NCBI GenBank assembly: GCA_038888155.1
Contig: JAWAJB010000001.1
Location: 224,001-288,000, forward strand
Direction of reading: 5' to 3'
Source of the DNA: Desulfurococcaceae archaeon
GTDB taxonomy: Archaea > Thermoproteota > Thermoprotei_A > Sulfolobales > Desulfurococcaceae
Length of the DNA: 64,000 nucleotides
A model generated the notes under the pieces. The model had not been told where the DNA came from. It made no database searches and saw only the letters and a program-made list of their open reading frames with translations. The stretch's first letter is position 1, and each line of letters opens with the position of its first letter. This document shows positions 2,364 through 44,145 of this stretch, in pieces. The position numbers and the translations under genes are program-made.

Positions 2364-3359
2364 GTGTACCTGGATACTGCAATACTAGACCACTACTACT
2401 TAGAGCTCGACAATGGATGTATTGCCGTAGTAACTGGCAACTGGCATACTGAGTACTGCGCGGTAGGGTACATTAAGTACTGCCCCACTAGCAAGCCAAC
2501 GCCGTGGAGCAGAAATGGTACATTCTACGAGAGGCTTGTGAAGACTTACAGCGCTAAAAGCGTAAGAGAGCACACCGGTTGGAGTATCTACATCCCCTTT
2601 TTCGACAGCTTTGTGCCGTGCATACCAGTTCACAGAGTTGTTAAGGCGTGGAACCCCATTGCGCGAACGCTTGATCTAACTAATAAAGTTAGAGATGAAC
2701 TGGAGAGAAGAGCCCTAGAGGCTGTAATGGAAATTAGCGAATACACTGGAGTTTTAACGGGAATAACTGGCTCGCTGCTCCCGGGAATACACAACTTGCA
2801 AATGAGCGACATAGATTTTGTAATATATGGTTCCTACAATTCACTTAAAGTTGTTGAGTACATTAGCGATCATAAGGATACTTTTAAGCCTTTAAACGGG
2901 CTTTCGCTCGCGAAGTGGGCTGAAGGCGCCTCTCAGAGTACTGGGCTGACAGTCAAAGAAGTCCTCAAGTTCTACCGCAATTGGCGAAGGGGGGCCCGTA
3001 ACGGAAGGGAGTACTCAATAATATACAACGACGGTGTACGCAGAGATGCGCTCACGCTGCCTACCTTCAGGAATGGCAAACCCATTAAAGCCATTGTAGA
3101 GCTTGAAGGCGGTTTAGATGCATTAAGCTATCCGTCTTACTCAAGGGTTCTCTCGTGGAGGGCGCCGAAAACAGCCTCGCGGGATGCCCCGCACGACATT
3201 GAGGGCATCTTAAGCTATGAAACTGTTTACATGCCTGCCCTATACGAGGGTGGCCTATTTGAGATAGATGGCTTGCTTCAGTGTTGTGACTTAACTGAGA
3301 CGTGCAGGGTGTTATTAGGGGGAGCTGAGTATAGGGGGACAATGAAGTACTGTAAGTGA
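2364..3359 (+). CDS. Nucleotidyltransferase-domain protein (COG1665-like)
   Basis: GITGSLL...SDIDFVIYG Pol-beta-type NTase motif. Confidence 0.7.
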   Translation: MYLDTAILDHYYLELDNGCIAVVTGNWHTEYCAVGYIKYCPTSKPTPWSRNGTFYERLVKTYSAKSVREHTGWSIYIPFFDSFVPCIPVHRVVKAWNPIARTLDLTNKVRDELERRALEAVMEISEYTGVLTGITGSLLPGIHNLQMSDIDFVIYGSYNSLKVVEYISDHKDTFKPLNGLSLAKWAEGASQSTGLTVKEVLKFYRNWRRGARNGREYSIIYNDGVRRDALTLPTFRNGKPIKAIVELEGGLDALSYPSYSRVLSWRAPKTASRDAPHDIEGILSYETVYMPALYEGGLFEIDGLLQCCDLTETCRVLLGGAEYRGTMKYCK

Positions 3360-3363
3360 TTGC

Positions 3364-3954
3364 ATGGCTGTTTTCCTTGTAGCTTACGACATAGGCGGCT
3401 CAAAACCAATCTCGCGAGTGCTGTGTTATGCGTCCAAGCGCTACGGAGTTGACGCCATACTGCTCTTGGGCGAGACGATATCGCCTAACGTAGTTAAGTG
3501 GCTTTACGAGGGGTGTAGAGCAAAGGTTCTCGGAGTCCTCGGGAGATGCGATGGGGCCGCAGTTGCGCAAGCGTTAAAAGAAGTTGGCGGGCTTGTTGAG
3601 TGTAAGCAAATTAGTGTAAGCGGAGTAGATATTTACGGGTTTGGATTGAGCGGTTGCCAGCCGACTACCTCTTTAAAGGCACATTTATTTATCTCAAATA
3701 TGCCCGGCCTAAATTACACATGTCAAATGCCAGGATCAGATGTTGTAGATGCGATCGTAGAGCAAATTAGCCCAATTGCAGTAATTGCGGGCAGATCTAA
3801 TACACCGTGCAGAAGGGGCATCGTTTTCTCGCCGGGTAGTGCAAGAAGAGGCTACTTTGGGTTGCTGAAAGTAGAGGACTCAAAAGCATTAACTAGTGTT
3901 GTGCACACCGATTTGCTGATAGTAAACAGCATTGAGAGCAATATGTCAACTTAG
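3364..3954 (+). CDS. Degenerate metallophosphoesterase-fold protein
   Basis: Calcineurin-like layout (YDIGG, LLGET, VLGRCD, SPGS..RGYF) with the metal ligands substituted. Confidence 0.5.
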   Translation: MAVFLVAYDIGGSKPISRVLCYASKRYGVDAILLLGETISPNVVKWLYEGCRAKVLGVLGRCDGAAVAQALKEVGGLVECKQISVSGVDIYGFGLSGCQPTTSLKAHLFISNMPGLNYTCQMPGSDVVDAIVEQISPIAVIAGRSNTPCRRGIVFSPGSARRGYFGLLKVEDSKALTSVVHTDLLIVNSIESNMST

Positions 3955-4194
3955 CTATCTAATAGAGGGTCCAATAACGTAAAAGAATTGACTCGCTTAT
4001 AGAGATGCTCAAAGAGCTCTGCAGCAGATTTAAAAAAACAAGCATTGGGGCAGAGAGAGGCATAAGGCATATTACGCATTACGCTTTGCTCGAGCGGCTA
4101 AAGCAGCCTAGTTGGTATTTCAGCTGAAAAAGCAGGGAATTTCGTTGGCGAGTTGCTGTAATGTTGTGGAAACTAAAGCAGCAAAGCTTTAAAG

Positions 4195-4583: not shown

Positions 4584-5294
4584 CTAGCAGCTGAGCCCTT
4601 TTTCCCTGCACATTTCCCTGAAAATATCAGCTGGTGTTCTTCTGTAAGAGAGGAATCCCCGCTGAGCTATATCCTCCTCTATAAATTGATCTACCCCTTC
4701 CGGCAGGGCTTTTGAAAGCTCTAGATATAGGCTTTCCAACCTAAGCTTGCCCTCTAGGAGGCTTTGGTTCAAGATGTCAACGAGGGGGAAAAGGCTTTCT
4801 CTATTAACAATTATGCCGCTTCTGCCTAGGATTAACTGGGATATGTAGATGCCAGTTATAAGCTCCAAGAAGTAGCCTCTTCTCTTGCTTGCGCTCAATA
4901 CACCGCTGTGCTTAAACCCAAGTCTCCTAGCAGTTTTTAAGAGCGCTACTGCTTTCTTAGAGCTAAGCGCGTATACATGCAGTATTGGTCCAGTCACGTT
5001 AATCCACAGATTCTTATAAGGCTTTAAGCTGTACAGGAAGTCTAGTTCTTCAACTTTTACGGGCGTGTGCGATTTAAACACAACGCCTGTTTCCTCTCTA
5101 CTCCAAGGGTAGAGCGAGTCAATAACTACTATTCTACCGCTACAGCTGCTGGTAGTGTAGAGATCGCTGTCTCTATTTATAGTGAGGAGAAGCGGGAGTA
5201 AATCCCTATCGAGGTAGCCTATCTCGAGGTCGCTCCATATCTTGCCCCAAAATAGCCTTTTCCGAGATTTCCACTCATTAGAGCTTAGATGCAT
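4584..5294 (-). CDS. taw3: tRNA(Phe) wyosine methyltransferase Taw3
   Basis: YTTSSCSGRI signature, PILHV, GFKHSG. Confidence 0.9.
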   Translation of the reverse strand: MHLSSNEWKSRKRLFWGKIWSDLEIGYLDRDLLPLLLTINRDSDLYTTSSCSGRIVVIDSLYPWSREETGVVFKSHTPVKVEELDFLYSLKPYKNLWINVTGPILHVYALSSKKAVALLKTARRLGFKHSGVLSASKRRGYFLELITGIYISQLILGRSGIIVNRESLFPLVDILNQSLLEGKLRLESLYLELSKALPEGVDQFIEEDIAQRGFLSYRRTPADIFREMCREKGLSC

Positions 5295-38154: not shown

Positions 38155-38212
38155 AAAAATTTTTTACTCCGCGTTGCTTTCAACTATCCTAGTGCGCTTT
38201 AGGTGTGACTGC

Positions 38213-38749
38213 ATGAGGAACTTAGAGAAAGTTGGTCCGGGAGAGAAAGCACCGGAAGAAGTTAATGTACTGATAGAGATACCTATGGGGAGCGGAGTTA
38301 AGTACGAGCTAGATAAAGAGAGCGGCATCCTAGTTGTAGATAGGATTTTGTACACATCAATGGTCTACCCATTTAACTACGGCTTCATACCTGGGACGCT
38401 AGAGGAGGACGGAGACCCTGTTGATGTCTTAGTTGTTTCATATGATCCACTGATACCCGGCTCTGTTATAAGGGCTAAGCCCATAGGCACTTTGGATACA
38501 GAGGACGAGAAGGGCCTAGACACGAAAGTTGTCGCTGTGCCTTCAGAGAAGATCGACCCAAGGTTTCAAAATATAAAGGACGTAGGAGATCTGCCCGAAT
38601 CTATAAGGCGGAGAATAGAGCACTTTTTCGCCCACTACAAAGAGCTAGAGAAGGGTAAGTGGGTCAAGGTAATTGGCTGGAACAATAGAGCTGTTGCCCT
38701 CGAGAAGATAAAGAGGGCCATTAAAAGACAGGGGGAGATCAGCGGGTAA
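38213..38749 (+). CDS. ppa: Inorganic pyrophosphatase
   Basis: [31 protein letters not shown]. Confidence 0.96.
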
Positions 38750-38941
38750 GGCCCGCTAGCTAGCGAATCGGCCTAAACTGCAGGAGGACGGCTACAGCCC
38801 CTAAACAAGGGGACTGCAACCATTGAGGGGGGTATGGGAATTTTAGGAGTGACTAGCCCGCTTTATTAAACCCTGTTACCCAGAGGTATGAGCGTAGATA
38901 TGAAGGGCTCTACCTGCAGTGTTCAGCGCTGGGGACCGTTG

Positions 38942-39256
38942 CTATTTTCCGAACACCTTCTTTTTAAATTCTGCTGGTTGATGAATAAAGAGCTCTACTA
39001 GAGAATATATGTCTTCATCTATGCCTAAGGCCTGCGCTACTGGCTTAACGAAGATCTCCCTTGCAATAAAAGCAACAGTCTCTTTGTTTTGGTAAATCTC
39101 GCTGAGCGCCTGGACTATTAGCTCGGGATTAGAGAGCAGCGCGTCGAACACGCTTACGCCTCCCCTTAACATGCAGTGCAGGTTGAGCATCGCTAGTAGG
39201 CCTGGAGCTATTGACGAAGCTTTCGCTTTTATAGAGCTAATAATATTGCTCTCCAT
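38942..39256 (-). CDS. Small helical hypothetical protein, last gene of the RiPP/ABC operon
   Basis: ATG 20 nt after the permease stop; resembles the 55071..55283 protein. Confidence 0.6.
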   Translation of the reverse strand: MESNIISSIKAKASSIAPGLLAMLNLHCMLRGGVSVFDALLSNPELIVQALSEIYQNKETVAFIAREIFVKPVAQALGIDEDIYSLVELFIHQPAEFKKKVFGK

Positions 39257-39276
39257 GTCTTGCCACACAGCGCTTG

Positions 39277-40023
39277 CTACCTCTTCTCGAGAACCATAAG
39301 GGCACCCTGGCGGGTCTTGTAAAGGGTAACGGCAGTAAGCAGTAGGGTCAGGGAGATGAGGTATGCAAGGGAGTAGCTGACGGGAACGCCCTCCTGAAAG
39401 CCAACACTCAACCTCAACAAACAAACAATGTGCGTAAATGGGTTAAAGAGCATGACAGTTCTCCAGGGCTGGTAAATGCCCTTTAACGTGTAGTAGAGCG
39501 GGGTTGCAATAGCCAACAAGATTATTAAAAGGGTGAGGAGGGGCTCTAACCTGTACCTGTTCCTAACAGTTAAGCCTAGGAGCACAGCGATGTTCGGGAA
39601 CAACAAGGCCGAAATGAGCAAGCTGAGGAAGACGTAGATCCAGTTCAGCCCTCCAGCTGCAACTAAGAGTAGCGCTACTCCTAGAGCGACTGGCGGTATG
39701 CTAAAGAGGAGCTGAGATACAATGTAGGATGCAAACAGCTCCCTCAAAGAGATAGGCAGAGATGCGTGTAGCTCTAGTACTTGCTCTTCAAACGTATTAG
39801 CAACAGTTACGGCAACGGGGTAAACTAGCGTCGAGAAGCACGCCATTACTACATAGCCCGTTAAGCCCACTAGGAAAGATTCAGCGCTGCCTCCAGAGGA
39901 GAGAACCACCACTGCCATATACGTAAGCGGCAACAGCACTGTTACTGTCACTAAGCTCGTCCAGTAAAGCCTGTACATCTTGAGATTGAACAAAATTGAC
40001 TTAATTAAGGTCCTAGGAGCCAT
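39277..40023 (-). CDS. ABC-2 type exporter permease
   Basis: About six TM helices; LPIS and NPFTH motifs. Confidence 0.85.
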   Translation of the reverse strand: MAPRTLIKSILFNLKMYRLYWTSLVTVTVLLPLTYMAVVVLSSGGSAESFLVGLTGYVVMACFSTLVYPVAVTVANTFEEQVLELHASLPISLRELFASYIVSQLLFSIPPVALGVALLLVAAGGLNWIYVFLSLLISALLFPNIAVLLGLTVRNRYRLEPLLTLLIILLAIATPLYYTLKGIYQPWRTVMLFNPFTHIVCLLRLSVGFQEGVPVSYSLAYLISLTLLLTAVTLYKTRQGALMVLEKR

Positions 40024-40026
40024 GTA

Positions 40027-40932
40027 TTACCCCCTGCTAGTTACCGCCTTGGTGAGGATTGTTTCAACAGATGGGTACTCTAAGTAAACCCTAATGTCAT
40101 CTCTGTACTCCCCATTAATTACTAATTGCTCTAGCTCCTGTAGCGCATCGACGAGCTTTTGATACTTTACAACTACGATGTTCTCGCCTACGTTCACATC
40201 CCCCCTTGTGAAGAGCTGCGCAAGTTTGCCGGCAAACCTACTGATGATCTTTACTTCTGCCCAAGTGTGCAAGCTATCAAGCGATGAAAGCACGTCAACC
40301 ACTCTACCGTACAGCATTAAGTACACTCTATCGCACAGCCTCCTCACTTCCTCTAGATCGTGGCTAACTAGCAGGAGCGTCTTTCCCTTACTCTTCTCAT
40401 ACGCGAGCACGTCCCATACTGCTCTTTTCTTTAACACGTCAATGTAGCTTGTCGGCTCGTCTAGTATCATTAGCTCGCTGTCCTTAACTAAGGCTTGGGC
40501 TAGCAGCAATAGCTTCCTCTGGCCCACTGAGAGCTGGTAGCCCAACCTGTCTCGGAAATCCCATAGCCCCAGCAGCTCGAGAACTTCCTGCACCCTTGTG
40601 TGCGGCGTGCCCGCTAAATCCGCTACATACCTGACTACTTCTATAACTCTGTGGGCTGGGAACACTAGGGGCAGTTGAGGGACATACGCAACGCTTCGCC
40701 TAATCGCCTCTTGCCTCTCAACTGGATTGAACCCGAGGACTGTTATTCTTCCACTAGTTGGCTTCAACAACCCCATTATCTGCCTCACAAGGGTTGTTTT
40801 ACCAGCGCCGTTAGGTCCCATAATGCAAGCTGTTTCACCGCTACATACCTCTAGAGATACGTCTGCGTTGGCCTTTACGCCGTTGGGGTAGACTTTAGTG
40901 ATCTTTTCAGCGACTATAACCCTATTGTACAT
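40027..40932 (-). CDS. ABC exporter ATP-binding protein
   Basis: GPNGAGKTT, LSVGQ, ILDEP, SH. Confidence 0.92.
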   Translation of the reverse strand: MYNRVIVAEKITKVYPNGVKANADVSLEVCSGETACIMGPNGAGKTTLVRQIMGLLKPTSGRITVLGFNPVERQEAIRRSVAYVPQLPLVFPAHRVIEVVRYVADLAGTPHTRVQEVLELLGLWDFRDRLGYQLSVGQRKLLLLAQALVKDSELMILDEPTSYIDVLKKRAVWDVLAYEKSKGKTLLLVSHDLEEVRRLCDRVYLMLYGRVVDVLSSLDSLHTWAEVKIISRFAGKLAQLFTRGDVNVGENIVVVKYQKLVDALQELEQLVINGEYRDDIRVYLEYPSVETILTKAVTSRG

Positions 40933-42241
40933 CTCTAACCACATCCCTGTACTTCGATATCGCGTAAGCTCGGACGAGCCTCTCGAGGTTGTGTTCACCG
41001 TATAAGGCTATAAGGCAGGTAGAGGCGCCCTTGGACTTCAAGTAAATGCAACCACCATAGCAGATTGGGGCGTATTTGCAGCTCTTAGTGCACTCGGGGT
41101 CATTTATTATTGGCGCCATTCTCTCAGGGGATATAGACGCTAGCCCATTGCCTAGAATTCTGCCCAGCGGCTTATCGTACATGTATGCTGGGCACATGTA
41201 TATATTCAACTTCTCGTCTACGGCGTAGCCGTTGCTGAACTTGCATATACACGGCCCCTTGATAAAGACCTTTGAGATCCTAAATCCCCTGCCTACAGCG
41301 TACTCTAGCGCTTCAACTATTCCCCTTGAGATATTCGAGTAGTACTCGCGGTAATTACTTGAGGCCTTAAACGGCCTATAAGCACTCGCTTGATCTGGGT
41401 GCACGGGAGAGAGGTCTATGCCCCAAACCTTGCTCTGGATCCCGAGGCTCGAGAGGAGATCTATGAGCTCAAAGGACCTCTCAACGTTGAACTCGTCGAC
41501 GTTTACTCGAATGCCTATGCGCTTGCCGTGTTTATCTATGAATTTAAGGGTGTTCTCTAGCACTATGTCAAATGTCCCCGTTCGATCTTTGAAGGGCCTC
41601 CTAGAGTTGTGTACATCACGCGGTCCATCAATAGTTACCTGAACGCTGTCAACGCTGTTGACAACTTCTTCAACTTCACCATCGAGAACTGTGGCATTAG
41701 TAATAAGGTCGACTTCTTTCCTGATGCCGTATTCCAAGACTAATTCGTCTATCTCTTTTGTGACTCTCTTGGCAATAGCAGGATTAAGTAGAGGCTCGCC
41801 GCCGTAAAGGGCTAAGGCCAGCATTTCGCTGCCGCTGTTGATTTTCCTCTCTAGGAACCCCCTCACTATTTCCCACTCCTTGGCGCTCATGTCATACCCC
41901 TCTACGTTGGGTCTGTAGGACTCGTAGCAGTACACGCACGCTAGGTTGCACCTATTGGTTAGCGACAGGAACATTGAGACTACTTTGCTTGAAAACCTAA
42001 CCTCTCTAGTTAGGCGAGAGTAGTGCTCCTCTTCGCTGAAGTCGTCGTCAATTAAAATTCGCTGGGACTTAAGCTGTGCAAAGACTTCAGAATCCGCTTC
42101 AAGCCTCTTCAACTCGCCAGAGCGAAGGGCTGAGCTTACATCTCTATCTACCAACAACAGAGTGCCGTAAAGGGAATTATAAACAAGATCGAAGTCTTGG
42201 GAGTACGGAAAAAACATGTTGAACTTTGATAGCTTGGTCAC
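40922..42241 (-). CDS. Radical SAM/SPASM peptide maturase
   Basis: CNLACVYC, YGGEP, IDGP..VHN.RR; SPASM Cys motifs (GPC...C...C..C...C..GC...C); N-terminal SKFN...YNS domain. Confidence 0.9.
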   Translation of the reverse strand: MTKLSKFNMFFPYSQDFDLVYNSLYGTLLLVDRDVSSALRSGELKRLEADSEVFAQLKSQRILIDDDFSEEEHYSRLTREVRFSSKVVSMFLSLTNRCNLACVYCYESYRPNVEGYDMSAKEWEIVRGFLERKINSGSEMLALALYGGEPLLNPAIAKRVTKEIDELVLEYGIRKEVDLITNATVLDGEVEEVVNSVDSVQVTIDGPRDVHNSRRPFKDRTGTFDIVLENTLKFIDKHGKRIGIRVNVDEFNVERSFELIDLLSSLGIQSKVWGIDLSPVHPDQASAYRPFKASSNYREYYSNISRGIVEALEYAVGRGFRISKVFIKGPCICKFSNGYAVDEKLNIYMCPAYMYDKPLGRILGNGLASISPERMAPIINDPECTKSCKYAPICYGGCIYLKSKGASTCLIALYGEHNLERLVRAYAISKYRDVVRDVQ

Positions 42242-42263
42242 TCACGGCACCTGCTTTGTAATA

Positions 42264-42383
42264 TTAGTTTGGAAGTATATAGTAACCCGTGCATACGAGC
42301 CTGCAGAAAGGACCGCAGAAATTCGACTCCCTCGCGTTAGTCATTCCCCTTTCTAGAACTATGACTTTGGGCTTGGACTTCAT
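42264..42383 (-). CDS. Putative RiPP precursor peptide MKSKPKVIVLERGMTNARESNFCGPFCRLVCTGYYILPN
   Basis: Translated by hand, 39 aa; ends 22 nt upstream of the rSAM/SPASM gene; CxxxCxxxC core; TATA-like element upstream. Confidence 0.8.
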   Translation of the reverse strand: MKSKPKVIVLERGMTNARESNFCGPFCRLVCTGYYILPN

Positions 42384-42515
42384 AATGTCGACCGATTAGA
42401 ATAATAGAAATTTTGAGATTTTTAAGTTTTTCGTATTTTTCCGAATAAGCAAATAATCAAAAATAAGCGCTTAGCTATTTTAGAACCTGCTGTATGATTA
42501 ATTATAGGGTAAACT

Positions 42516-43073
42516 ATGAGCAGCGATCCAATAACTGAGTGCAGCAAGAAAATATACATTGGGACATACGGAGCTGTCACTAAGGAGCTCGCAATATTAG
42601 AGAGCTCTACGAGGAAAGCTATTATTTACCAGCTGGCCGTTAATGGCCCTATGACAATCAAGGAGCTGTCAGATTCGCTGGGGCTCTCGCCATCCACTGT
42701 CTACGACCACATCAGGAAATTAAAGGAAGCTGGCTACATAGAGGAGGCGTCAGAGCACCCAAAGAAGTTCAAGGTCGAAGTTTACTACAGGCTCTCAATA
42801 CCGTATATGTTCTTCAGCGAGATAAGCTCGCTTGAGCCGCATTTATCGCCTCAACTTGAGAAGCTCAAAGGGGCAATCCGCAATACTCTCAGCAACATAG
42901 AGTCCACGCTAAAGGAGTCGCGCCTCAAGTGCGTTGAGTACTTACCCCAAAACTTAAAGGAGAGCTTCATTCACCGCCTATCTCTTGTTCTAATGACTCA
43001 GGCATTCGCCATGATACTGGGAGAGCTTACGGGCGAAACTTTCGTGTACGCGCTTATAGAGGATAGAAAATAA
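42516..43073 (+). CDS. ArsR-family transcriptional regulator
   Basis: STRKAI...L...PMTIKELS..LGLSPSTVYDHIRKL..AG HTH; divergent from the precursor. Confidence 0.85.
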   Translation: MSSDPITECSKKIYIGTYGAVTKELAILESSTRKAIIYQLAVNGPMTIKELSDSLGLSPSTVYDHIRKLKEAGYIEEASEHPKKFKVEVYYRLSIPYMFFSEISSLEPHLSPQLEKLKGAIRNTLSNIESTLKESRLKCVEYLPQNLKESFIHRLSLVLMTQAFAMILGELTGETFVYALIEDRK

Positions 43074-43089: not shown

Positions 43090-44145
43090 TCAAGCAATAT
43101 CTCTCTTCAAGGCCCAGCTCGCATCTCGCGGATTGAGCCTCTTGACGTTGCCCGCTACCAAGCCGTGAGCAATAAGCGGTAACGCTATTGTTGCGTCTAC
43201 GTGAACTGTTCTCTTCTTCGCTACTGGCGAAACCTTTCCCCAGCTGACAGCCTCCTCAAGTGTAGCTCCGCTCAACCCTCCCCACTGAGGCATATCTGTT
43301 GTGAACTGGACTATGTACTCGAAGCCCTTGTAGTAGTCTAGCTTGCCTTCCTCGATCTCGGCTATGAGCGTAAGGGCTACAGTCATTAAGTTGACGTAGT
43401 CCTTTGGTACCCCTCCGCCAACGTATATTGCAGAAATCTTACCGGCGCCCCTGCCGATTTCAACTAGTTGGTGGAAATCCTTAACCATGTCTAGCACTAT
43501 TCTCTTTTTCTTCTTGAGGCCAGTTACTAGGGCTATGCCGTAGGCGCTGTCCACTATCGCGGGAGAGAAAACTGGCACTCTTGCCCTATACGCTGCAGCA
43601 ACTATGCTGTCTATGTTCTTCTCGTTGAGGTACTTCCCAAACTCGTGCAGGAACTCAGCTGTAGAGTACACGGCGTTATCCGGTAGCGTCTCGATAAACT
43701 CCCTTATCAAGGACTCCATTTTCCTGTAGTCGAGCTCGCTTGCTACAGTGTCGTAGAATCTATCGTACTTGAGCTTGAGCAACATGGAGTCATCGACGCA
43801 GGGGTTTACCTTGTAGTACTTGAAGCCCATTGCCTCGAAAATGTCCTCGCTTATGATAGCGCCCGTTGACACTACAACGTCTACATACCTCTGCTCTACG
43901 AGCCACTTAATGACCTTCCAGACGCCCGCTGTGCTCATGGAGCCAGCTAAGCCCATGAAGATCGTGTTATCGGGATCCCTGAACATGTCCAATAAAACGC
44001 GGTAGGCTTCACCGAGCGACCTGCCCTGAAAGGAAATATCTGACATGTCTAGGAGCAACTCGTGTATGTTCCTCTCCTTAACGTCAATTGATTTAACTAA
44101 GCCGTATGCAAAATCAGGTATGGAGTCGTCCACTGACTTCACCAC
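43090..44145 (-). CDS. dys: Deoxyhypusine synthase
   Basis: GGGVPKD, GGLSGATLEEAVSWGK, DATIALPL. Confidence 0.93.
   Translation of the reverse strand: MVKSVDDSIPDFAYGLVKSIDVKERNIHELLLDMSDISFQGRSLGEAYRVLLDMFRDPDNTIFMGLAGSMSTAGVWKVIKWLVEQRYVDVVVSTGAIISEDIFEAMGFKYYKVNPCVDDSMLLKLKYDRFYDTVASELDYRKMESLIREFIETLPDNAVYSTAEFLHEFGKYLNEKNIDSIVAAAYRARVPVFSPAIVDSAYGIALVTGLKKKKRIVLDMVKDFHQLVEIGRGAGKISAIYVGGGVPKDYVNLMTVALTLIAEIEEGKLDYYKGFEYIVQFTTDMPQWGGLSGATLEEAVSWGKVSPVAKKRTVHVDATIALPLIAHGLVAGNVKRLNPRDASWALKRDIA

Follow-up and report, generated by a model that had tools for sequence, protein, structure and literature searches.

What does a 39-amino-acid (aa) open reading frame (ORF) encode when it heads an operon built around a radical S-adenosylmethionine (SAM) enzyme in a hyperthermophilic archaeon? 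The locus in question lies in a 64,000-nucleotide (nt) stretch of DNA, here called the window, from a Desulfurococcaceae archaeon (GCA_038888155.1, contig JAWAJB010000001.1, positions 224,001 to 288,000 of the forward strand; G000:C1:224001-288000 in our genome set). We propose, at a probability of roughly 0.7, that it is a self-contained, regulator-linked cassette for a ribosomally made peptide with post-translational modifications (RiPP), whose product would be a thioether-linked Cys peptide. On comparison with relatives, the precursor ORF heads the maturase operon and the two genes always co-occur. The sequence-only reading of the window had described this ORF at the head of an operon of a radical-SAM/SPASM maturase, an overlapping ATP-binding cassette (ABC) ATPase, an ABC-2 permease and a small protein, with a divergent ArsR gene, and each of these genes lies where that reading had placed it.

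42264-42383, minus strand: precursor peptide gene, 39 aa, ATG to TAA
40922-42241, minus strand: radical-SAM/SPASM maturase, 439 aa, GTG start with AGGTG 6 nt 5' of it
40027-40932, minus strand: ABC transporter ATPase, DrrA-like (PF00005, 109.5 bits; longest ORF from GTG 40998)
39277-40023, minus strand: ABC-2 type permease, 248 aa (PF12698, 35.2 bits; PF01061, 28.5 bits)
38942-39256, minus strand: 104-aa protein, all-helical in the model, with a predicted PH0832/NitrOD5-like fold, an invariant P-G-L and one Cys
42516-43073, plus strand, divergent: ArsR-type winged-helix regulator, 185 aa (PF01022, 53.5 bits)
38174-38749: inorganic pyrophosphatase (PPase), flanking housekeeping gene
43090-44145: deoxyhypusine synthase (DHS), flanking housekeeping gene

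The precursor ORF ends 22 nt before the maturase gene. Orthologue N-termini favour ATG 40932 as the ATPase start, giving an 11-nt overlap with the maturase gene (23 nt from the alternative ATG 40944). The last ORF had been listed as 38942-39424; orthologue alignment makes ATG 39256 the likelier start, which gives 104 aa and places the gene 20 nt past the permease stop. A spacer of 132 nt separates the regulator gene from the precursor ORF. Neither Pfam nor NCBIfam finds a peptidase domain in the cassette's five proteins, in agreement with the earlier statement that the operon carries no dedicated protease. The cluster had also been called complete, a description that the missing leader protease leaves unproven.

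A small ORF conserved with the maturase

Maturase orthologues were sought in 41 genomes, G000 and 40 relatives. Eight further genomes of the same genus encode full-length orthologues, 45-58% identical, and immediately 5' of the maturase gene in 8/8 of these loci, hence 9/9 counting the window, lies a homologous ORF of 32-42 aa. A lack of similar peptides upstream of maturase homologues had been named beforehand as the result that would speak against a precursor; the peptides are there at every one of the nine orthologous loci. In the window peptide, K-V-I-V-L-E-R forms a basic leader that resembles a beta strand, E-S-N-F makes up the junction, C-x3-C-x3-C is the core, and the hydrophobic tail is variable. 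The family pattern is a basic N-terminus, [KR]-[VI]-[VI]-[VI]-L-E-[RK], six to eight variable residues (6-8), [RK]-E-[PS]-N-F and C-x3-C-x3-C, again followed by a variable hydrophobic tail, and the junction reads E-P-N-F in most relatives. L027 departs from it with a shorter leader and N-G-I-C-x3-C-x3-C. In an alignment of 18 precursors L10 and E11 never vary, conservation reaches 90% or more at E19, N21, F22, C23 and C27, and every sequence has two or more Cys beyond the N-F junction. Past the last Cys the tail shows no conservation and shrinks to 3 residues in L028.

A profile of the nine peptides was run in six frames against 61 genomes of the family. It gave one match per genome in exactly the nine maturase-bearing genomes (E 2e-22 to 7e-15), plus two weak matches (E 4e-4 and 4e-3) within 138-aa frames of another genus. 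Nucleotide differences between precursor pairs fall at codon positions 1, 2 and 3 in the numbers 506/429/793, and the median ratio of nonsynonymous to synonymous differences (pN/pS) is 0.45, a rough estimate since pS, at ~0.79, is near saturation. This is coding-type conservation. Among 1.84 billion representative proteins the profile recovers 12 cluster representatives of the family, 31-45 aa long, and the divergent ones keep V-L-E ... E-P-N-F-C. Beyond the genus, the sole clear match among 351 genomes of the class is in G203, and 401 genomes of the phylum sample gave none. No NCBIfam family recognises any of the nine peptides at E<=10. Because the ORF is conserved upstream of the maturase in 9/9 loci, co-occurs strictly with it and has family members in the protein library, we conclude that the comparison identifies a real gene, and gene callers have picked up other members of its family. 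The precursor had been described as hidden, which is true of the ORF cut-off used in the first reading and not of the predicted-protein library, where 12 cluster representatives of its family are present.

The maturase

The 439-aa protein matches the radical-SAM domain (PF04055) at 58 bits against a cut-off of 29.5. In ten aligned sequences C98, C102 and C105, the CxxxCxxC motif for the SAM-binding 4Fe-4S cluster, are invariant, as are C331, C350, C384, C394, C398 and C409 in the C-terminal part; C388 is at least 90% conserved, making seven SPASM-like Cys. The SPASM-type spacing is C-x3-C-x5-C-x3-C, where the usual form is C-x2-C-x5-C-x3-C. Scores of the profile hidden Markov models (HMMs) for named peptide maturases were as follows.

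CefB (NF038107): 185.2 bits, cut-off 600, E 1.8e-54
Geopeptide maturase (TIGR04280): 178 bits, cut-off 400, E 3.9e-52
TIGR04463: 151.2 bits, cut-off 525, E 3.7e-44
PapB: 104 bits, cut-off 340, E 9e-30
RumMC sactisynthase: 77 bits, cut-off 720
SCIFF maturase (TIGR03974): 69.8 bits, cut-off 425
GggB sactisynthase: 46 bits, cut-off 650

The peptide-maturase alignments run from residue 2-3 (7 for TIGR04463) to ~400. The cyclophane (YhhB) and dynobactin (DynA) maturase models also match, at 57-59 bits, and the SkfB sequence scores 47 bits against the maturase profile. In a PDB sequence search with that profile, CteB (5wgg) was closest at 96 bits, followed by anSME.

An AlphaFold2 model of the maturase has a mean predicted local distance difference test score (pLDDT) of 79.8. 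Its N-terminal domain contains strands at 8-12, 17-22 and 27-32 and helices at 33-41, 44-48 and 51-59, with block-mean pLDDT of 81-92. In this model, residues ~1-85 have the features of a RiPP recognition element (RRE)-like peptide-recognition domain, and leader binding is predicted. CteB is also the best fold match, with a template modelling (TM) score of 0.64-0.66 over the full length and 466 columns; TigE (8vpo) is second and anSME third. For maturase residues 1-95 together with the precursor, both supplied as alignments, the predicted complex scored 0.27 against a mark of 0.32, which counts neither for nor against leader binding. The SPASM and RRE assignments rest on the conserved Cys, the NCBIfam alignments and the structure model. 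They agree with the earlier description of a radical-SAM/SPASM enzyme with an N-terminal recognition domain, which is borne out by the CxxxCxxC motif, the seven C-terminal Cys, the modelled RRE-type domain and the CteB-like fold.

In a collection of 5.8 billion proteins the orthologue group comes to 18 clusters at 47% identity or more, with the next matches down to 30%, and the named clusters are annotated 'radical SAM protein [Desulfurococcaceae archaeon]'. A 34% relative occurs in G036, of another family, and a metagenome scan with the maturase added two further loci only, both near-copies of the G002 type.

Transporter, partner protein and regulator

A separate ATPase (PF00005) and an ABC-2 membrane protein (PF12698, PF01061), all over their cut-offs, are encoded in the window, as expected of an exporter. 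The ATPase scores 160.8 bits with TIGR01188, which is under that model's cut-off. The pair is intact at 4/9 loci (the window, L022, L026 and L029), disrupted at 2/9 (the permease in L025, the ATPase in L028) and absent from 3/9 (L023, L024 and L027); some of the disruptions are possibly assembly errors in metagenome bins. Because the pair is absent or disrupted at five loci in this comparison, it is best regarded as accessory and export as not obligatory. The exported product foreseen by the sequence-only reading is thereby less secure.

The 104-aa protein is more persistent. It is present at 8/9 loci, missing from L027, and is retained even where the ABC genes are gone, its gene then overlapping the maturase gene by 4 nt or abutting it. 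Pfam reports nothing over threshold, the window's protein scoring 14.1 bits with PF11537 (NitrOD5) against a gathering cut-off of 27; weak PF11537 matches occur in 6/8 family members, the best at E 3.5e-4. An AlphaFold2 model (pLDDT 93.3) has seven helices. Foldseek matched it to 2p9x, the structure of PH0832 from Pyrococcus horikoshii, with probability 1.0 and TM 0.60-0.63, and VIA gave Z 9.2 with a root mean square deviation of 2.8 Å over 93 of 98 residues, the next best match having Z 5.5. The model thus has the PH0832 fold, and we take PH0832 to be a member of PF11537. In the PDB sequence search with the 104-aa profile, the designed helical repeat proteins 8g8i and 8eoz came out on top, which we read as compositional resemblance. 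The ESM Atlas returned archaeal 'hypothetical protein' clusters only, one with 12% PF11537, a lead and not evidence. We know of no PH0832/NitrOD5 fold in any RiPP system, and no literature search was aimed at that link. NitrOD5 is uncharacterised; PMC5847659 describes it as an archaeal 'death-domain-like' family, stand-alone or fused to receiver domains in Thaumarchaeota. From its retention we infer a dedicated partner of the maturase. The small protein of the first reading is present at the expected place, but its conservation and fold argue that it is no bystander.

The divergent gene does encode an ArsR/SmtB-type regulator, with HTH_5 (PF01022) at 53.5 bits against a cut-off of 22. With 39.1 bits for NF033788, where 55 is required, the protein does not qualify for the metalloregulator subfamily, and the C-terminal part of ~90 aa belongs to no recognised family. 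We considered whether this could be a resident housekeeping gene of the locus and rejected the idea, as the gene is missing wherever the cassette is missing.

Nature and role of the product

How might the proposed thioether arise? The leader (K-V-I-V-L-E-R ... E-P-N-F) would pair with the RRE-like domain of the maturase as an extra beta strand. SAM would be cleaved at the radical-SAM cluster, and the radical so formed would pull a hydrogen atom off one of the core residues. The carbon radical would then be captured by a core Cys, probably held on an auxiliary Fe-S cluster, to give an intramolecular thioether, and one to three small rings could form within N-F-C-x3-C-x3-C. The link more likely goes to a carbon other than the alpha carbon (ranthionine-type), since CrpC/TIGR04463, PapB and CteB, the nearest characterised enzymes, all form links of this type. 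The 104-aa protein may serve the maturase as chaperone or scaffold, or it may take part in sensing or immunity. At loci that have them, the DrrA-like ATPase and ABC-2 permease may export the product or protect the producer. The divergent ArsR-type protein would govern two back-to-back promoters, and leader removal, if any, would fall to a protease encoded elsewhere. Cys-derived thioether chemistry, thermostability and bioactivity are predicted properties of the product.

Several observations weigh against this proposal. The core reads C-G-P-F/Y-C-R/S/K-L/T-V/F-C, with no conserved D/E/Q/T acceptor at +3 or +4 of a Cys, and differs in this from the acceptor motif of characterised ranthipeptides, C-x2-3-[D/E/Q/T] (PMC13692751 in part). 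No single Cys is universal, the first being replaced by Ile in L029, and the library precursors carry 2-4 Cys after N-F in C-C, C-x2-C or C-x3-C spacing. The maturase falls under the curated cut-off of every named family, including those for ranthipeptides (TIGR03974, PapB, TIGR04463) and sactipeptides (RumMC, GggB), and the Pfam SPASM and PqqD/RRE models do not match it at E<=0.01. The ABC genes, lost at 3/9 loci and broken at 2/9, weigh against obligatory export or self-toxicity. Lacking the canonical acceptors, and with N21 and F22, directly ahead of the first Cys, conserved to the same degree as Cys, the core may use an unusual acceptor or carry another type of cross-link. A sacti-type hairpin with downstream acceptors is unlikely given so variable a tail, which has almost vanished in L028.

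The product may be, instead of a secreted antimicrobial, a cell-internal or signalling molecule, SCIFF-like, that is sensed through the ArsR-type regulator, the NitrOD5-fold protein or both, with the ABC pair optional. Precursor, maturase and regulator stay intact at the loci where the ABC genes are missing or broken, and L027 consists of these three genes alone. NitrOD5 appears as an output domain of archaeal response regulators (PMC5847659), and SCIFF-derived peptides are cited as quorum signals in PMC13635244. Set against this, four of the nine loci retain an intact ABC-2 exporter, translationally coupled to the maturase, no component is a known receptor, and part of the ABC disruptions may be assembly errors of metagenome bins. 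We regard a cell-internal or signalling role as a possibility, though an unlikely one on balance; this estimate is not additive with the others, as such a role is compatible with a thioether or a non-thioether product.

A bolder and more doubtful proposal is that the 'V-L-E ... E-P-N-F-C' peptides form a new class of RiPPs in hyperthermophilic archaea. The link would then be neither a classical sactionine nor a C-x-x-D/Q ranthionine but, for example, one from Cys to the junction's Asn or Phe. As a third component, the protein with the PH0832/NitrOD5 fold would be indispensable, in the role of maturase chaperone or peptide sensor, closing a signalling loop with the ArsR-type regulator. If true, this would be the first function for the NitrOD5 domain family.

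The same conserved junction raises the question of whether the maturase makes a thioether at all. Within an otherwise identical RiPP cassette, the enzyme could install a C-C or ether link on an aromatic residue or Asn (N-F-C-G-P-F/Y; cyclophane- or streptide-type), epimerise residues or oxidise Cys, in which case the Cys would form disulfides, bind metal or take part in recognition. The high conservation of N21 and F22, the frequent aromatic at position 26, the variable number and spacing of Cys and the missing canonical acceptor motif would all suit such an enzyme, as would the YhhB and DynA matches and the second-best fold match, TigE (8vpo), which we take to be a cyclopropylglycine-forming enzyme. 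On the other side, the top HMM and fold matches (CefB, TIGR04463, PapB and CteB) are families of Cys-rich peptides and thioether synthases, and both the conservation of C27 and the Cys pairs after N-F in every aligned precursor favour a role for Cys in the link itself. We consider a non-thioether maturase improbable.

That the small ORF is a regulatory upstream or chance ORF, the enzyme acting on some other target, is largely refuted: the lack of NCBIfam matches and the roughness of pN/pS under near-saturated pS would permit it, but the peptide and its Cys pattern persist while the maturases are only 45-58% identical, the two genes co-occur strictly, the same family fills 12 clusters in an independent protein library, and every family near the enzyme consists of peptide maturases that carry a recognition domain at the N-terminus.

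Comparison with known systems

One of the nearest characterised counterparts of the proposed thioether cassette is archaeal. CrpC of Methanococcus voltae (PMC13692751, 2026), with which characterisation of such enzymes from archaea began, installs ranthionine thioethers in CrpA, a protein of 28.8 kDa that contains ten repeats of 17 residues and C-x-x-Q/D motifs. Like CrpC, the window enzyme combines RRE, radical-SAM and SPASM parts with an adjacent gene for a Cys-rich substrate, and it aligns to TIGR04463 over residues 7-400. It is not a member of that family (151 vs 525 bits), its substrate, a peptide of 39 aa, has C-x3-C-x3-C and lacks a Q/D acceptor, where CrpA is a protein with Q/D motifs, and its host is a crenarchaeote instead of a methanogen.

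The best full-length HMM matches, to the CefA/CefB 'Cys-every-fifth' system and the geopeptide maturases, suggest a second comparison. Cys recurs there every fifth residue, whereas here it recurs every fourth (x3), and the scores do not place our pair in CefA/CefB. Literature searches by family name returned no described chemistry for CefB or the geopeptide families; TIGR04463 alone surfaced, in one paper. With CteB/thermocellin (SCIFF) and PapB/freyrasin the cassette shares a short Cys-rich precursor and a minimal cluster of precursor and maturase, CteB being the closest solved structure. It differs by a core without C-x3-D or C-x2-T and by further genes, for an ArsR regulator, a partner with the PH0832 fold and an ABC-2 exporter that is optional. 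The subtilosin-type sactipeptide operon has the order sboA-albA...albC-albD, so that precursor, radical-SAM/SPASM maturase, ABC ATPase and membrane permease come in the same order as in the window; AlbE/F-type proteases are missing from our cassette and the sactisynthase HMM scores are low. The likeness of the 104-aa protein to PH0832/NitrOD5 is limited in that it stays under the Pfam gathering cut-off and that both are functionally uncharacterised.

Radical-SAM-type RiPP clusters have been mined across archaea, the TACK group included, and attempts to activate them are reported to have failed (2024 preprint, 10.1101/2024.10.07.616454). We found no paper on such a cluster in Desulfurococcaceae or Thermosphaera among the matches listed, although the supplementary tables of the mining preprint might list such clusters. 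The literature searched likewise held no report of one from Crenarchaeota and no radical-SAM-modified archaeal small peptide with known structure or function. The view that crenarchaeal RiPPs of this kind are essentially uncharacterised is to be qualified by the genome mining of the archaeal class and by CrpC (PMC13692751). By comparison of sequences and models, the new elements are the family of the precursor, a maturase that fits none of the curated families and, unexpectedly, a partner with the PH0832 fold; the general kind was already known.

Promoter-like elements and expression

Both sides of the spacer contain promoter-like elements.

42418-42445, minus strand: promoter-like element of the precursor gene, TTCGGAAA-N4-CGAAA followed by the TATA-like TTAAAAAT, ~38 nt before the ATG
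42471-42483, plus strand: TAGCTATTTTAG-like element on the regulator side (CTAAAATAGCTAA), ~39 nt ahead of the ArsR start; it aligns in most of the nine loci

The arrangement TTCGGAAA-N4-CGAAA with TTTAAA/TTATAA is common to 9/9 loci, ~35-40 nt 5' of the start codon, and a GGTG-type ribosome-binding site 5' of the precursor to most of them. By the archaeal consensus, we take TTCGGAAA-N4-CGAAA plus TATA box to be a B recognition element (BRE) and TATA-like pair, and the element on the precursor side presumably acts as a promoter. The TAGCTATTTTAG-like element is likely the TATA box of the divergent regulator gene. CGGAAA/CGAAA recurs in the spacer and could be an operator.

Metatranscriptome library X6 contains contigs at least 99% identical to the window for the permease, ATPase and maturase genes, and the regulator gene is covered in part. 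One contig corresponds to 42164-42349, the start of the maturase gene and most of the precursor ORF. The contigs miss the 104-aa gene, the PPase gene and the first 34 nt of the precursor ORF, and such gaps prove nothing. These are contigs and not reads, and RNA libraries can hold DNA; they hint, weakly, at transcription of the operon in a community of a hot spring or sediment.

Presence and loss of the cassette

Precursor, maturase and regulator occur at 9/9 loci. The cassette sits between the PPase and DHS genes in 7/9. In G004 (L029, G004:C13) it adjoins purK/purE instead, and at that same place G009 carries a maturase pseudogene (L030:5880-7479, G009:C1) with nine stops over two matched segments. 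A 90-aa ATPase stub accompanies this remnant, and neither a precursor nor a regulator was found there. In the cassette-free genomes G007, G008 and G010 the PPase, a small winged helix-turn-helix (wHTH) and the DHS genes are directly adjacent, and in G016 the DHS and wHTH genes alone were seen before the contig ends. No ArsR-type gene was found at E<=1e-8 in five maturase-free genomes of the genus (G007, G008, G010, G014 and G016). Because the empty sites have their flanks adjacent and lack the ArsR gene as well, the cassette, regulator included, is to all appearances gained or lost together, as an insertion or deletion of ~4 kb in Desulfurococcaceae (Thermosphaera-like) genomes.

The match in G203, a genome from a different family of the order, appears to belong to a cassette in decay. 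Its locus (L123:4213-6782, G203:C4) has an ArsR-type gene and a precursor ORF of the E-D-P-N-F-C type (4926-5081), one frameshift interrupts the ABC ATPase gene and another the permease gene, and the SPASM maturase is not present. An unrelated radical-SAM gene of 265 aa lies at 3320-4117.

In relatives a wHTH gene of ~107 aa lies between the PPase gene and the cassette (L022:3816-4145 and its equivalents in L023-L028). The corresponding 38750-38941 of the window spans only 193 nt and has no tblastn match to it. At 2.42 Mb, in 134 contigs and with 6.4% contamination, the G000 assembly exceeds the genus's 16 other genomes (0.9-1.5 Mb) in size; the bin may mix organisms. The cassette is single-copy in G000.

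Small ORFs next to distant maturases

Cys-rich small ORFs also adjoin distant maturase homologues (L034, L035, L048, L057, L065/L080 and L079). Relatives at 29-33% identity adjoin C-x4-C repeat peptides (L034, L035), and the Polyangiaceae relative L079 has a leader, K-F-V-I-I-K-R-G-V-K-L-D-E-P-N, closely like that of the window.

Other peptides were seen beside related maturases. One small family lies 5' of distant maturases in two Thermoplasmata bins (L065:3906-3986 and L080:3903-3986) and in G036, of the window's order (L011:1399-1485), with the leader K-[VL]-[VL]-K-[IL]-[ED]-R-K and the end R-C-[GN]-Y-S-P-S-W-G-[NQ]. Further precursor types lie at L034:3631-3972, L093:3738-3965 and L048:3348-3901: in a Thermococci bin, a tandem pair of Cys-rich peptides built on C-x3/4-C repeats; in a Theionarchaea bin, one peptide in which C-A-L-E-V-Q-P-T-F occurs six times; and in a Halothermothrix bin, four tandem M-K-L-L-V-L-R-N peptides.

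Significance

The cassette is a compact test case, with four to six genes in ~4 kb and a 39-aa substrate. Nine natural precursor/maturase pairs and at least seven further precursor variants (P0125-P0132) are at hand for structure-activity comparison. The hosts grow near boiling temperatures, and both enzyme and product should be robust. A PH0832/NitrOD5 fold of uncharacterised function is now tied, by model and gene context, to a defined pathway. The patchy presence of the cassette, the loss of its ABC genes and the pseudogenised copies should be useful for asking what role such peptides play in hot-spring archaea.

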